From a virus (lineage: Duplodnaviria; Heunggongvirae; Uroviricota; Caudoviricetes): 18,937 nt of DNA. The notes beneath the pieces were generated by a model, which was not told where the DNA came from, ran no database searches, and worked only from the letters and a program-made list of their open reading frames with translations. Position numbers and translations under genes: made by a program. The stretch is taken from IMG/VR virus record IMGVR_UViG_2713896790_000007. One strand, 5' to 3'. Below, one piece after another: positions 4,359-17,379 of this stretch; the stretch's first letter is position 1; the number at the start of each line of letters is the position of its first letter.

Positions 4359-4638
4359 AGATTGTGGTGCTTTTTGTGGGAGTCATCCACTTACGCACTT
4401 TGTTTTGCCATGCCAGCAGTTAGCTTCTGCTGTAAAACTATTCATGCAGCAAACCTGCACTTCACCACAATGGTTAGCATACTTTTCCTGATTAAGATTT
4501 TGCCAAATATGCTAGCCATTGTTTCATGTATTGGACCTCCTTACTTTTTATTAAAGAGATCCAATATTCACTACTCTGTCCGTATCTCTACTCAGGCATC
4601 AGCCTTCTTCGTTATCGTATACAGACGAGCGATGAATT

Positions 4639-4854
4639 TTAATCAGTAATGATGACATTTGCTGCTGCAGGACCTTTAGCACCACTCTCTATAGAGAAGG
4701 TAACCTTTTGACCTTCAAATAAGGTTCGATAATTATCATTCTGAATCGCAGAAAAATGCACAAACACATCTTTACTACCATCAACAGGAGAAATAAAGCC
4801 GAAACCTTTATCAGCGTTAAACCATTTTACTAAACCAGTCATTTTATTTGACAT
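4639..4854 (-). CDS. cspB: Cold-shock protein CspB, 71 aa
   Basis: [23 protein letters not shown]... CspA-family sequence. Confidence 0.95.
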
Positions 4855-5154
4855 TCTACATTCCTTAACTTGAGCCTTTCGGCATAAATGGTTTGCATAA
4901 CAGAAACGACTTCGTACTTAATTGGAGAGACTCAAAGAAGGAATAAGTGAATAACACCTGAAATGAGAACTGCTTTAGTAAACTACTTCGTATATCGTCT
5001 GTTCTTCAAACCGACGCAATCATTAACGCATAGTTGAACATATGAAGCAATGTTTATTTTAGACATCCAGCCATCTTCAACCCCATCAAAAAACTATAGC
5101 TTTCTTCAGGAACGTGTGTATAGTGCGCCAAGTTATCAGTATTAAGGAATTTTT

Positions 5155-8418: not shown

Positions 8419-8561
8419 TTACTCCTCAGGTTCGTAAGCTGTGAAGACAGCGACCTCCGTCTGNNNNNNNNNNNNNNNNNNNNNNNNNNNNNNNNNNNNN
8501 NNNNNNNNNNNNNTAAACAGATGACGATCAGGGCGATTAACATCGCCTTTTGCTGCTTCAT
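8419..8561 (-). CDS. hokD: Hok-family type I toxin HokD (RelF), interrupted by an assembly gap
   Basis: N-terminus MKQQKAMLIALIVICL at 8561..8514 and C-terminus QTEVAVFTAYEPEE* at 8463..8419; the middle lies in the N-run. Confidence 0.8.
8464..8513. other. Assembly gap, 50 N
   Basis: Run of n; about 21 hokD codons (63 nt) are missing, so 50 is a placeholder length. Confidence 0.95.
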
Positions 8562-11774: not shown

Positions 11775-12108
11775 GAAAAATCCCCCAGAGAATTGTCTGG
11801 GGACATTTTAGAATGGTTCAAAGGGGACATTACAGCTTGGTGTTAACAATAGCCTGCTTCTCCGTGCCTTTCGGCACGTAAGAGGCTAACCTACATGTGT
11901 CTAGCATGAAATTGGCCTCAGATTAATGTTAAGCGTCTTGCAGGACGCGTAATGTTAACTGGGGCTTTTCTCTATCTGCCGTTGGTGTCCATGCCCGAGG
12001 CAGATAGCCTCAAGCACCCGCAGTCATTCTACTTAACTAAGATTTCCCCGCAAACCGTTTTTGTCCAGCACAGTAAATATCCAACTAAACCAATGGAGTT
12101 CGCTGTAT

Positions 12109-13440: not shown

Positions 13441-13797
13441 TTAAAAAATCAGAACGCCGTGCGGCCTCAACACCCGAAAGGCTTCTTTAAATCTCTGTCG
13501 CGAATCATCACGCCAGGCATCTTTATTCAGCCGTCCATATTTCTTTCCCATCCAGGCGTTATCACCAACACTCTCAAGATGCGGAGGGTCTAATACAACC
13601 ATCGAAAAAGATGCGTCTGCAAATGATAATGCACGAAAATCTGCGATAATGTCAGGGCTGATAATCAAGCGTCTCCCATTGCGTAATGTGTATCCTTCTT
13701 TTCTGATATCGCTGAATATCGCCCGTTCGTCAGACTTATCGAACCAGAACATGCGGCTGCCACAGCACATATCAAGAATGGTTGCCGGTGCACTCAC
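13441..13797 (-). CDS. Short SAM-dependent methyltransferase-like protein, 118 aa (DPPH motif), possibly truncated
   Basis: GTG start overlapping the upstream stop (GTGA); motif I-like LDMCCGS and motif IV-like VVLDPPH; ends at TAA with 29 more in-frame sense codons before the next stop. Confidence 0.6.
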   Translation of the reverse strand: MSAPATILDMCCGSRMFWFDKSDERAIFSDIRKEGYTLRNGRRLIISPDIIADFRALSFADASFSMVVLDPPHLESVGDNAWMGKKYGRLNKDAWRDDSRQRFKEAFRVLRPHGVLIF

Positions 13798-14216
13798 TGC
13801 GCCACGTCCTGAAAATTACCCTGATAGAAAGCCAGTATGCGCTGCATAACTTCGCTCTTCCGGCACTCGCGACAGATTATGTTTAGGCGACTGTCGTAGC
13901 GACGTATTTCTCCGTCAGGTGATGACCAGATAAGGTCCGGATCAACCACAGCAGGTTTCTTCACCTTTGCCCTCGAGAGTTTTTTGCGGGCGTTTTGCCA
14001 GTCCTTACGCGCCTGTTCAGAGGGGAATAACCCGTAGCCGGAGTTGTATACATCGCCACTGGCTACCAGCTCTCTGGCAAGAACGCTCATCAGATATCTA
14101 GTCGCACCTGTTTTAGCTTCCAGTTGCCGTAACGTCTCACGGCCGCTCTGGCGCACGAGTTCCACCACCTGCCATTTAATTTTTTCCCGCTCTTCTTGTG
14201 TAAAAACTTTTGCCAC
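13794..14216 (-). CDS. Hypothetical prophage protein, 140 aa, possible winged-helix
   Basis: Clean ORF with start MAKVFTQEEREK...; translationally coupled to the methyltransferase. Confidence 0.65.
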   Translation of the reverse strand: MAKVFTQEEREKIKWQVVELVRQSGRETLRQLEAKTGATRYLMSVLARELVASGDVYNSGYGLFPSEQARKDWQNARKKLSRAKVKKPAVVDPDLIWSSPDGEIRRYDSRLNIICRECRKSEVMQRILAFYQGNFQDVAQ

Positions 14217-14256: not shown

Positions 14257-15222
14257 TTATCCTCTGAAACCAGGCGGAATTTCTGTATCCGGTTCAGAAA
14301 TATGATTAACACAACGCTGTACAGGTGAACGTCCCAGGCGGATGACCAGTTCGTCCCATTTTTCGCGGAGCTTTGACGGGCTCATGATGTTTTTGACCCA
14401 GAATGGATCTCGCTGAACCCGACCAAACATTTCGCAAATTTGTCTGTGGCTTCTGCCATCCAGCATCCGCATTGTGCGCACGTCATTGGCCCAGGCAGTC
14501 CAGTTAGGCTCTTTTGGTCGCATGATCTCGCCATCATCACTGGCTGCCTGTTCGTAGAGACCCACGATCCGCCCCCAGATCCACTGCGCACACGCCAAAT
14601 CCTCCCTGCTACCCCACTGGCGTTTTTTCGCACTAAACACAACCGCGTCGGAGTTCCGGGTTAAAAAATCCTGTTCAGTCGTCTGCGGGTCCGGTTGCGA
14701 AGCTTCCGGACGAAAAGTGTTTTTATTCTCTGTAGTAGTCTCTGTTGTATTCTCTGTAAGATCATCAGGCCATTTTGACCCGATGACATTGGGTCGTTTT
14801 GAACCAATGGAGCGTTTCATTTTGACCTCTTCCATCGTGTCATTTTGACCTGATGGAGCGGCGCATTTTGAACCGATGGATTCGCTCAATTTGCCACCAT
14901 CTAAAAGCTCGCTCCCATAGTTGATCGTGTAGAAATTGGTCATATCGCGCTTTGATTTATTGAGCTTTTCACAACGCAAAAGCCCCAGCGTTTTCAGACT
15001 TGCAAACGCGCGCTTTAACGTTGACTCTGACCAGAATGGGAACTGTTCCAGCCATTGTTCCGTTGTGTTATAAATCCAGCGAACACCATCACATTCCATG
15101 CCGGAGTTGGTATCTCTCAACCAGTAGTGCAGTTGTTGCAAAACAATGGCTTCGTTTAAGCCAATTTTCATTGCCAGCTGCGTGTTTATAACCAGTGGGC
15201 GTTCAGCAAAAAGAAGGCTCAT
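14257..15222 (-). CDS. Phage replication initiator (O-like replisome organiser) with internal origin iterons
   Basis: Start taken at ATG 15222 (SD GGATGG; MSLLFAERPLV...) rather than the TTG at 15276; the central repeated IGSK peptide motifs correspond to the DNA iterons. Confidence 0.75.
   Translation of the reverse strand: MSLLFAERPLVINTQLAMKIGLNEAIVLQQLHYWLRDTNSGMECDGVRWIYNTTEQWLEQFPFWSESTLKRAFASLKTLGLLRCEKLNKSKRDMTNFYTINYGSELLDGGKLSESIGSKCAAPSGQNDTMEEVKMKRSIGSKRPNVIGSKWPDDLTENTTETTTENKNTFRPEASQPDPQTTEQDFLTRNSDAVVFSAKKRQWGSREDLACAQWIWGRIVGLYEQAASDDGEIMRPKEPNWTAWANDVRTMRMLDGRSHRQICEMFGRVQRDPFWVKNIMSPSKLREKWDELVIRLGRSPVQRCVNHISEPDTEIPPGFRG
14771..14900. repeat. Replication-origin iterons, about six copies at a 23-24 bp period
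   Basis: CATTTTGA(C/A)C-N-GATGG copies starting near 14771, 14795, 14818, 14841, 14864 and 14888, flanked by an AT-rich tract at about 14735-14770. Confidence 0.7.
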
Positions 15223-15724
15223 AATTCCATCCAGCTTTTTGTTGGTATTGCTGTCGATACGCAAGTTTGAAAGCAATTGCTTTTTCTATAAGTTCGTCAG
15301 TTTCACGATCCACTACGGCAGGATCAGCAAAAAGCAGTCCGGACTCCACCACATCGCCATATTCTTTGTTTAACCCGGCGATCATGCACGTGATGCTTTT
15401 TCCGTCAGTAATTTCACGATACAACCTGAAATCATTAATCCGGATAGCCTCCATAATTGCAGGCACTAGCGCCGTGAACTTTTCACGCTTATCCCTGGTG
15501 TCGATAGCCTTCCAGCGTTCAAATATCTTCACTCGATTAACGCCAAGCGCTCGCTGATCAATCGCGCCACCTTCATATGTGACACGCTGAACATCGATGT
15601 TCGGGCGCTCTTTCAAAGCCCAGAATGCTTCAGTGATTAATATCGTCGCCTGCTCCTGTGTCATTCCTGGTCGACATATCCAGGCATCCAGAGCCTCACG
15701 AGCCTGTTCAGGAGTGATTTTCAT
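15203..15724 (-). CDS. YdaT-like (CII-position) prophage regulatory protein, 173 aa
   Basis: Gene directly downstream of the cro-like dicC; family resemblance to YdaT is from memory; 3' end overlaps the replication gene by 20 nt. Confidence 0.5.
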   Translation of the reverse strand: MKITPEQAREALDAWICRPGMTQEQATILITEAFWALKERPNIDVQRVTYEGGAIDQRALGVNRVKIFERWKAIDTRDKREKFTALVPAIMEAIRINDFRLYREITDGKSITCMIAGLNKEYGDVVESGLLFADPAVVDRETDELIEKAIAFKLAYRQQYQQKAGWNYEPSFC

Positions 15725-15938
15725 TGTTCAACCGCCCCGCCCGCTTCGTCTTACGATATTCATCATAAACTTTGGGATCATACTGAAGCTCCCCGCCAGA
15801 TGCCTCCTGTAGACGCATCGCGCGACCTTCGGGAACTAAATCCCCTTTCCAGCTATAAAGCGAAGCCAAACGAATACCTGCTGCTTGTGCAAGTTTTGTT
15901 TTTGAACCGAAATACAAAAGAGCGTCAGTTTTAAGCAT
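15708..15938 (-). CDS. dicC: DicC, Cro-like repressor, 76 aa
   Basis: MLKTDALLYFGSKTKLAQAAGIRLASLYSW... divergent from dicA. Confidence 0.9.
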   Translation of the reverse strand: MLKTDALLYFGSKTKLAQAAGIRLASLYSWKGDLVPEGRAMRLQEASGGELQYDPKVYDEYRKTKRAGRLNNENHS

Positions 15939-15952
15939 TTAAAACACCTTTA

Positions 15953-16019
15953 TTGTTAGCCATAACTAACAAGATAGATGTTAACAAAAACATAGTCAAT
16001 ACGATTTAGCATTAGCTAA
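15953..16019. promoter_or_regulatory. dicA-dicC divergent promoter region with operator palindromes
   Basis: TTGTTAGccataaCTAACAA (15953-15972), ATGTTaacaaAAACAT (15978-15993) and TTAGCattaGCTAA (16006-16019). Confidence 0.6.
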
Positions 16020-16021
16020 CT

Positions 16022-16429
16022 ATGGAAACAAAAAATTTAACTATCGGCGAACGCATCAGGTATCGTCGGAAAAACCTCAAACACACCCAAAGGTCTCTTG
16101 CTAAAGCCCTGAAAATCTCCCATGTGTCTGTATCACAATGGGAACGGGGTGATAGTGAACCTACAGGGAAGAACCTTTTTGCCCTCAGCAAAGTATTGCA
16201 ATGCTCACCAACATGGATTCTATTTGGCGATGAAGACAAGCAACCAACACCACCTGTTGAGAAGCCAGTTGCCTTATCCCCCAAAGAACTAGAGCTCCTT
16301 GAGCTGTTTAATGCACTGCCAGAATCAGAACAGGATACCCAGCTCGCCGAAATGCGAGCTCGAGTAAAAAACTTCAATAAACTCTTTGAAGAATTACTAA
16401 AAGCCCGTCAGCGGACAAATAAAAGATAA
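16022..16429 (+). CDS. dicA: DicA, HTH (CI/C2-like) repressor, 135 aa
   Basis: METKNLTIGERIRYRRKNLKHTQRSLAKALKISHVSVSQWERG... XRE-type HTH. Confidence 0.95.
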   Translation: METKNLTIGERIRYRRKNLKHTQRSLAKALKISHVSVSQWERGDSEPTGKNLFALSKVLQCSPTWILFGDEDKQPTPPVEKPVALSPKELELLELFNALPESEQDTQLAEMRARVKNFNKLFEELLKARQRTNKR

Positions 16430-16735: not shown

Positions 16736-16785
16736 NNNNNNNNNNNNNNNNNNNNNNNNNNNNNNNNNNNNNNNNNNNNNNNNNN
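16736..16785. other. Assembly gap, 50 N
   Basis: Run of n; expected to hide the ydfA 3' end, ydfB and the ydfC 5' end. Confidence 0.95.
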
Positions 16786-17321: not shown

Positions 17322-17379
17322 TTTCTGGTGACGTTTGGCGGTATCAGTTTTACTCCGTGACTGCTCTGCCGCCCTTTTT
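17322..17379 (+). ncRNA. dicF: DicF small RNA (ftsZ-targeting)
   Basis: TTTCTGGTGACGTTTGGCGGTATCAGTTTTACTCCGTGACTGCTCTGCCGCCCTTTTT matches the DicF sequence recalled from K-12, including the terminator stem and U-tail. Confidence 0.85.

Follow-up and report, generated by a model that had tools for sequence, protein, structure and literature searches.

The sequence between positions 14689 and 14901 of the window (the whole 18,937-nucleotide stretch of Caudoviricetes DNA analyzed here, IMG/VR record IMGVR_UViG_2713896790_000007) is very probably the origin from which a Qin-type lambdoid prophage replicates vegetatively, embedded in the part of the prophage's own initiator gene that codes for an inter-domain linker. 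The initiator is 321 residues long and, by its sequence relationships, is a hybrid, with an N-terminal domain that belongs to no Pfam family, a C-terminal domain of the lambda O type, and a short tail resembling the end of E. coli DnaT. The system is best described, as far as sequence comparison goes, as a lambda- or RepA_N-type in-gene origin serving a hybrid initiator that has no loader gene, and the basic arrangement is a known one. Coordinates are collected in Table 1.

A repeat finder places five copies of the repeat, and a weaker sixth, at 14763, 14787, 14810, 14833, 14856, and 14879, with spacings of 24, 23, 23, 23, and 23 base pairs (bp). About six repeats with a period of 23–24 bp inside an O-like gene had been proposed in a first-pass annotation of the window made from the sequence alone, and the proposal holds; Tandem Repeats Finder detects repeats of period 23 at 14797–14880 (3.7 copies, 70% matches, score 70) and of period 12 at 14727–14758. 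The core YRTTTTGAMC matches five times in the 18.9-kilobase (kb) window, always within 14771–14873, where 0.56 matches are expected by chance, and none of 200 shuffles reaches five, which rules out a chance origin of the repeats. The six copies, 23–24 bp apart across 14763–14901, constitute the regular direct repeats that characterize iteron-type theta origins. The motif first given for them, CATTTTGA(C/A)C-N-GATGG, identified real repeats, but the full string fits only two copies and is the reverse complement of the coding (minus) strand. The unit is better given as a 13-bp semi-palindrome, GGTCA-AAA-TGACC, with the units lying at codons 108–153 of the initiator gene. The sixth copy (14879–14901) is degenerate in the window, and the same position in relatives is a good palindromic GGTCAAAGTGACC site. 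No DnaA boxes were seen within or beside the repeats and the window-wide count is that expected by chance, so a DnaA-box-dependent origin is unsupported; a known RNA element was likewise dropped as an explanation because Rfam has no match across the origin region.

The AT-rich tract that the first reading of the sequence placed after the repeats resolves into three 12-mers spanning 14724–14759, directly after iteron 5, with a GC fraction of 0.30 over 14720–14759 compared to approximately 0.45–0.6 in the flanks. The motif CAGAGANTAM has three matches in the window, all within this array, where 0.22 are expected. The same three-part layout is found well beyond this prophage. A scan of one genome per species yielded 80 loci with the same N-terminal domain, from Enterobacterales, Pseudomonas, Acinetobacter, Staphylococcus, lactobacilli, Bacillus relatives, Clostridia, and several metagenome-assembled genomes, and most of these have three to six repeats of 22–24 bp at the same position, approximately nucleotides 320–460 of the gene. 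The iterons in these relatives are followed by two to five copies of (A)CAGAGAnTAC(n)A, and then, in the usual case, by a GC-rich palindrome that lies another 10–30 bp away. Across 23 proteobacterial loci, 88.7% of the cells in the palindrome alignment are paired, compared to at most 39% with slid partners, and one of the pairs occurs as GC, UA, or CG and is unpaired in no locus; in two loci (L012 and L013) the palindrome is almost identical to that of lambda. In Klebsiella phages the N-terminal domain, iterons, and CAGAGA array form a single mosaic block that is joined to a different C-terminal domain. We also note that the CAGAGA array (approximately nucleotides 400–560 of the gene, L006–L085), with its 11–12 bp period, is near-constant from Enterobacterales to Firmicutes while the neighboring iterons vary. 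The array may be read through binding of the initiator to a single strand or by a host factor, or it may serve helical phasing.

Because the repeats are read as protein, they could be a by-product of a low-complexity linker peptide, with selection acting on the protein and the DNA period being functionless. The translation does contain IGSK three times and TE.T three times, in a region predicted to be disordered, and the first-pass annotation had described the DNA repeats as mirrored by IGSK motifs. This is correct for three copies, but the other two of the five good copies lie in other frames and encode the unrelated peptides SGQND and EEVKM. The core GTCAAAATG yields S-K at three copies, Q-N at one, and V-K-M at one, such that all three frames are used, and since 23 is not divisible by three, the presence of IGSK at only three copies is a side effect of shared frame. 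The 12-mers were evaluated in 38 distinct related loci, where they were picked by the peptide pattern T-E-x-T at a four-residue spacing. Within these repeats the Glu codon is GAG in 110 of 110 instances, compared to 45% elsewhere in the same genes (Fisher p=5e-35), and the Thr codon is ACA in 103 of 103, compared to 25% elsewhere (Fisher p=4e-55), leaving no synonymous variation. In arrays with an 11-bp period (L034, L049, L056, L057, and L062) the CAGAGA copies sit in differing frames, and the linker peptide changes between relatives while the DNA palindromes and elements persist. The reading of the iteron core in three frames, the invariant TExT codons, and the frame shifts of CAGAGA together indicate that both sets of repeats are constrained as DNA. 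The repeats are selected as DNA, and the peptide-repeat explanation, which these observations already contradict, can be regarded as extremely unlikely.

The iterons also appear to be read by the protein in whose gene they lie. The 13-bp palindromes vary by lineage with both arms changing together (GGTCA..TGACC, GGACA..TGTCC, GGGCA..TGC(A/C)C, GATCA..TGATC, and GGCCA..TGGCC), and we labelled 33 loci by the third base of the half site (GG[N]CA) and calculated the mutual information of this label with every column of the N-domain alignment. Residue 67 predicts the half-site base in all 33 loci, with T accompanying S, P, or A (17 loci), A accompanying K or R (five loci), G accompanying D (ten loci), and C accompanying H (one locus). 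The mutual information at column 67 is 1.58 bits, which equals the label entropy, the next column reaches 0.95, and none of 2000 label shuffles reaches 1.58. The covariation is not merely clade structure, since 14 of the 33 loci have as their closest relative by N-domain a locus of the other specificity; specificity is switched, for example, between L027 (K, GGACA) and L025 (D, GGGCA), which share 86% identity, and between L049 (S) and L080 (R), which share 75%. This covariation is the strongest evidence on the question, and indicates that the N-terminal domain probably recognizes the repeats of its own gene, and does so as a symmetric dimer.

Recognition is not the same as firing, and covariation proves only the former. 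The repeats might therefore bind the initiator for purposes of control, such as autoregulation, copy-number handcuffing, or exclusion of related phages, with the true origin lying elsewhere, and plasmid iterons often serve both roles. We consider this improbable, however, as the sites adjoin the AT-rich repeats and the palindrome, with the elements ordered as in the mapped lambda origin, neither Tandem Repeats Finder nor the core-motif count reveals a second iteron cluster in the window, and equivalent in-gene repeats are the origin both in lambda (PMC7466680) and in RepA_N plasmids (PMC5703833).

The initiator belongs to phrog_391 ('replication initiation O-like', E=6e-92), and is named only as a 'hypothetical protein' in RefSeq (WP_000054512.1), with 4762 homologues at E<=1e-5 spread over bacterial phyla. 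No Pfam family matches it even at E<=10, including Phage_rep_O and RepA_N (PF06970), and the sole family match in Pfam and NCBIfam is that of the approximately 20-residue DnaT-like tail. BLASTP aligns residues 147–294 with residues 135–270 of lambda O (33% identity, E=8e-26) and gives no alignment of the N-terminal part to lambda O. The suggestion that this is a lambda-style origin within an O gene is thus supported, with the C-domain homology being joined by the same order of elements, the occurrence of the layout in dozens of relatives, and the residue-67 covariation.

The fold of the N-terminal domain is seen less clearly. The AlphaFold2 (AF2) model has the secondary structure H-H-b-b-H-H-b-b over residues 14–101, a disordered segment at residues 108–175 (predicted local distance difference test score, pLDDT, of approximately 25) that overlaps the origin DNA, and a helical C-terminal domain, although the alignment behind it is shallow (15 sequences, all at least 70% identical) and the mean pLDDT is 55. 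A profile of 56 N-terminal domains compared to PDB sequences and Pfam gives only sub-threshold matches to winged-helix families (PadR, MarR, and HTH_11), and none of the 56 relatives has a RepA_N Pfam match at E<=0.01. The best Foldseek matches of the low-confidence model are RepA_N N-terminal domains (4pql and 5kbj, E values of 0.03–0.08 and target-normalized template-modelling scores of 0.46–0.48), with 4ro3 also listed and the listed E values ranging from 0.03 to 0.4. With a model of this confidence, both the winged-helix assignment and the resemblance to RepA_N are weak. We also note that the N-terminal domain carries an invariant G-L-N-E-A-I-x-L-Q-Q motif and is common in phages of many phyla, and that deposited records name its homologues variously as DnaD-like, O-like, 'primosomal protein I', or 'conjugative transposon protein'.

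The C-terminal tail is identical to DnaT (PDB chains 2ru8, 6aep, and 9zbt) at 15 of 21 residues and includes the ...SEPDxxIPPGFRG pattern. The match to the NCBIfam DnaT family NF002770 scores 16.2 bits against a cut-off of 201 and covers only profile positions 160–179, so this is not a full-length match. The IPxGF(R/K)G tail is found on at least three unrelated C-terminal domains. As separate observations, the tail loci (window 14260–14322, and within L004 and L011–L044) show the same pattern as the E. coli DnaT end, and initiators coupled to lambda P end in a motif of the W-x-x-x-L type, as lambda O does.

The presence of this tail correlates with what follows the gene. Among 21 tail-bearing loci there are no DnaB, IstB, or lambda P matches in the next two open reading frames (ORFs), whereas the next two ORFs of 47 tail-less loci include 17 matches to DnaB_C, 16 to IstB_IS21, and three to Phage_lambda_P. 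Phages PhiR42_1, mEp460, and HannyBb share the layout in which the O-like gene is followed by a DUF977 gene, and in HannyBb no helicase, loader, or primase is annotated genome-wide, the initiator being the only annotated replication gene. The initiator P0036 is 75% identical to that of the window and sits in the same dicB-dicA-cro-ydaT backbone; it diverges only past ...ELVLRLG to end in ...GDWNSADGWEDVL, and its gene is followed by a lambda-P homologue and then by DUF977. The locus counts and P0036 suggest that the tail and a phage loader are alternatives. Taken with the phage layouts and the occurrence of the tail on unrelated C-terminal domains, they also argue that the absence of a P- or DnaC-like gene downstream, which the first-pass annotation recorded correctly, is native to the design and not a sign of decay. 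DUF977 itself was considered as a hidden loader and rejected, because it follows lambda P at the ren position in the P-coupled locus L089 and matches the 'Ren-like' phrog_142.

According to two papers (PMC13377028; PMC5778457), it is not known how DnaB-DnaC is recruited by DnaT, and we found no statement on the role of the extreme DnaT C-terminus in the literature searched. We offer, as a tentative proposal that we hold to be possible but somewhat less than even in likelihood, that the IPxGFRG tail is a transferable peptide by which a phage initiator of defined sequence specificity connects directly to the host DnaB-loading (restart primosome) machinery with no need for a phage loader, and that alongside it the array of CAGAGA 11–12-mers is a phylum-spanning, sequence-specific unwinding element read by the widespread N-terminal domain, rather than a mere AT-rich spacer. 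DnaB-DnaC and PriA would be the obvious candidate partners of the tail. If the proposal is true, then because E. coli DnaT has the same tail, it would also mark a missing contact in replication restart.

The window itself derives from a Qin-type lambdoid prophage of E. coli, and several genomes, relatives of ATCC 8739 among them, match the 4 kb tested at 100% identity. Prophages of the Qin type are often cryptic, a neighboring methyltransferase gene appears truncated, and an identical genome has pseudogenes nearby. Moreover, initiator variants of 290 residues (P0016–P0021; L088 1640–1860) have an exact 93-bp in-frame deletion extending from iteron 1 to iteron 5, as if four iterons had been lost by recombination between repeats in some E. 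coli prophages; the variants show that the repeats recombine and that some prophages lack most of the origin. These considerations raise the prospect that the element is a genuine origin by descent but is dead here, as a fossil in a cryptic, non-replicating prophage. The first-pass annotation had taken the prophage to be defective, but this was an assumption and not a finding, and 99% of the window's length aligns at 99.8% identity with PhiR42_1 (PV340562.1, from ECOR13), deposited as a complete phage genome with the insertion sequence (IS) element included; we found no paper describing PhiR42_1 in the literature searched. The origin region is one to four bases from that of three deposited phages, with one base separating it from PhiR42_1 and a few from the other two, mEp460, which completes both lytic and lysogenic cycles (PMC9836094), and HannyBb, which was isolated from the environment. 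The initiator gene is full-length, and the earlier judgment that the replication module is structurally intact agrees with its closeness to these phages. We therefore regard a dead origin as unlikely, at about the same level as a purely regulatory role for the repeats.

Our preferred interpretation, that 14689–14901 is the vegetative origin, suggests the following sequence of events. Relief of DicA repression would allow transcription to start at the dicC promoter, and, as in lambda, this transcription would express the initiator and also run through the origin. Dimers of the N-terminal domain would then bind the six 13-bp semi-palindromes spaced 23 bp apart, with residue 67 reading the third base of each half site, and the resulting nucleoprotein complex could destabilize the adjoining array of CAGAGA 12-mers, which would act as the unwinding element, with the GC palindrome at its far edge. 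Finally, the lambda-O-type C-terminal domain and the DnaT-like tail may recruit the host DnaB helicase machinery directly, and a phage loader of the P or DnaC type would be dispensable.

Several points weigh against this interpretation. The AT-rich tract is short (approximately 39 bp) and only 70% AT, iterons 0, 3, and 4 deviate from the consensus, and compensatory change is observed at just one pair of the palindrome. The loci compared are interrelated, so that the counts are not independent events, and the tail-bearing loci are all from Enterobacterales. The pLDDT of 55 makes the predicted likeness to winged-helix and RepA_N domains a lead only, the papers on DnaT name no binding partner of its tail (PMC5778457; PMC13377028), and in its present host the prophage might never use the origin. 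We found no replication, binding, or unwinding experiment on this element in the literature searched.

Table 1. Positions of the putative origin elements, the initiator gene and its segments, and neighboring features in the window.
Feature	Position	Strand	Details
Iteron 0	14879..14901	-	Degenerate; coding strand GATGGTGGCAAATTGAGCGAATC
Iteron 1	14856..14878	-	CATCGGTTCAAAATGCGCCGCTC; translated SIGSK
Iteron 2	14833..14855	-	CATCAGGTCAAAATGACACGATG; other frame, translated PSGQND
Iteron 3	14810..14832	-	GAAGAGGTCAAAATGAAACGCTC; third frame, translated EEVKM
Iteron 4	14787..14809	-	CATTGGTTCAAAACGACCCAATG; translated SIGSK
Iteron 5	14763..14785	-	CATCGGGTCAAAATGGCCTGATG; translated VIGSK; closest copy to the AT-rich array; kept in the natural 93-bp deletion variant
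AT-rich array of three 12-mers, candidate DNA-unwinding element	14721..14759	-	Coding strand ACAGAGAATACA / ACAGAGACTACT / ACAGAGAATAAA
GC-rich palindrome	14689..14711		Coding strand GTCCGGAAGC TTC GCAACCGGAC; at the place of the lambda origin palindrome
O-like replication initiator gene, 321 residues	14257..15222	-	ATG at 15222; ORF list, phrog_391
N-terminal domain, residues 1–108, winged-helix-like, putative iteron binder	14899..15222	-	AF2, profiles, Foldseek, covariation
S67 codon	15022–15024	-	Start of predicted helix 66–78 (W-S-E-S-T-L-K-R)
Linker, residues 109–182, encoded by origin DNA, predicted disordered	14677..14898	-	pLDDT ~25
C-terminal domain, residues 183–296, lambda O homologue	14335..14676	-	BLASTP, phrog_277
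C-terminal tail, residues 301–321	14260..14322	-	VQRCVNHISEPDTEIPPGFRG; matches E. coli DnaT C-terminus; NCBIfam NF002770, PDB chains
DUF977 (LygF, 'Ren-like') gene	13794..14216	-	Pfam DUF977 E=5e-29, phrog_142; directly downstream, lambda ren position
YdaT/cII-like gene	15203–15724	-	Upstream, same transcription unit; overlaps initiator start
dicC (cro-like) gene	15708–15938	-	Upstream, same transcription unit (15203..15938)
Promoter-like site TTGACT-17-TATCTT, dicA-dicC intergenic	15971..15999	-	Consensus scan only; could drive transcription across the origin
dicA repressor gene	16022–16429	+	Divergent from the initiator unit

Other features of the window lie outside the replication module. 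The methyltransferase ORF (13441–13797, minus strand, 118 residues, of the S-adenosylmethionine-dependent DNA methyltransferase type) covers positions 52–165 of a 229-position PHROG profile, and beyond it the identical annotated genome has pseudogenes and an IS fragment. Two runs of 50 masked (N) bases are present at 8464–8513 and 16736–16785, the second of which interrupts the ydfA region and produces a run of X in one ORF translation. Rfam elements above the gathering score are the DicF small RNA (17323–17374, plus strand), the sok antitoxin RNA of the hokD locus (11848–12019, minus strand), and two cspA-type thermoregulator leaders of the cspB/cspI region (4623–5015 and 1836–2221, both on the minus strand), all of which are ordinary Qin-prophage cargo.

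None of the literature that we searched describes this origin, the CAGAGA array, or a DnaT-like tail on a phage initiator, and earlier descriptions are possible (e.g. Weigel and Seitz 2006); nor did we find there the family-wide DNA signature, the rule relating one residue to one base, or the alternation of tail and loader. A large and unnamed family of initiators has an in-gene origin that can now be recognized by a three-part DNA signature, and the residue-67 rule could predict the replication specificity and incompatibility of prophages and guide the engineering of orthogonal replicons. The natural experiment of tail or loader offers a possible explanation for the replication of lambdoid phages that lack a loader, such as mEp460, and the tail is a concrete candidate for the peptide through which DnaT contacts DnaB/DnaC (or PriA) in replication restart.

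Location of an origin within its initiator gene is a textbook feature of both lambda and the RepA_N plasmids, and the window system has likenesses to, and departures from, each. As in lambda, where ori lies inside gene O (PMC7466680), and in the Stx-phage origins with six iterons, the putative origin is placed mid-gene in the code for an inter-domain linker, and the order of elements is shared, with tandem iterons of dyad symmetry spaced 20–24 bp apart, an AT-rich tract, and a palindrome. The gene is also downstream of cro- and cII-like genes, such that early rightward-type transcription would cross the origin. Unlike lambda O, however, the N-terminal domain has no sequence similarity to its counterpart and there is no Phage_rep_O match, the iteron sequence differs, the AT-rich tract is an ordered array of CAGAGA 12-mers, no P gene follows, and the protein ends in a DnaT-like tail where lambda O ends in ...DWIYGVDL. 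The lambda AT-rich tract (ACAAAAGACACTATTACAAAAGAA...; L086 1120–1190) and palindrome arms (GTCAGAGAAT / GTCAGAGGAT) resemble the ACA(G/A)AGA units of the present family (window 14689–14759), and we note that BLASTP similarity to lambda O starts directly past the final iteron. The C-terminal domain and the unwinding half of the origin may have a common ancestry.

The RepA_N proteins (pSK41 Rep, pTZ2162 RepA, and the RepA of the Vibrio PLE) provide a second comparison. The Rep of pSK41 has 319 residues, of which 1–120 form an N-terminal domain that binds Rep boxes located centrally in rep, 121–199 form a dispensable linker encoded by the origin, and the remainder is a host-specific C-terminal domain (PMC5703833); the window initiator is close to it in size and in its three-part construction. 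The iterons of the RepA_N group are described as semi-palindromic and as converging on a run of A (PMC7145576), and GGTCA-AAA-TGACC fits this description of semi-palindromic, A-tract-centered iterons in mid-gene. The window initiator differs in having no Pfam match, in having a C-terminal domain of the lambda O type rather than a DnaD-like or primase-binding one, and in its residence in a lambdoid phage, not a Gram-positive plasmid.

The similarity to E. coli DnaT (primosomal protein I, of the PriA-PriB-DnaT restart pathway) is confined to the tail, with the remainder of the two proteins being unrelated by sequence, although both would act just before DnaB loading if the role proposed here is correct. 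DnaT is recruited by fork structure via PriA and PriB, whereas the window initiator is expected to be recruited by sequence-specific iterons. Closest of all are the relatives coupled to lambda P, DnaC/IstB, or DnaB (L089, L010, L017, L030, and others), which have the same N-terminal domain, the same layout of iterons, CAGAGA array, and palindrome, and often the same backbone, but do not have the IPxGFRG tail and have instead a loader or helicase gene immediately downstream.

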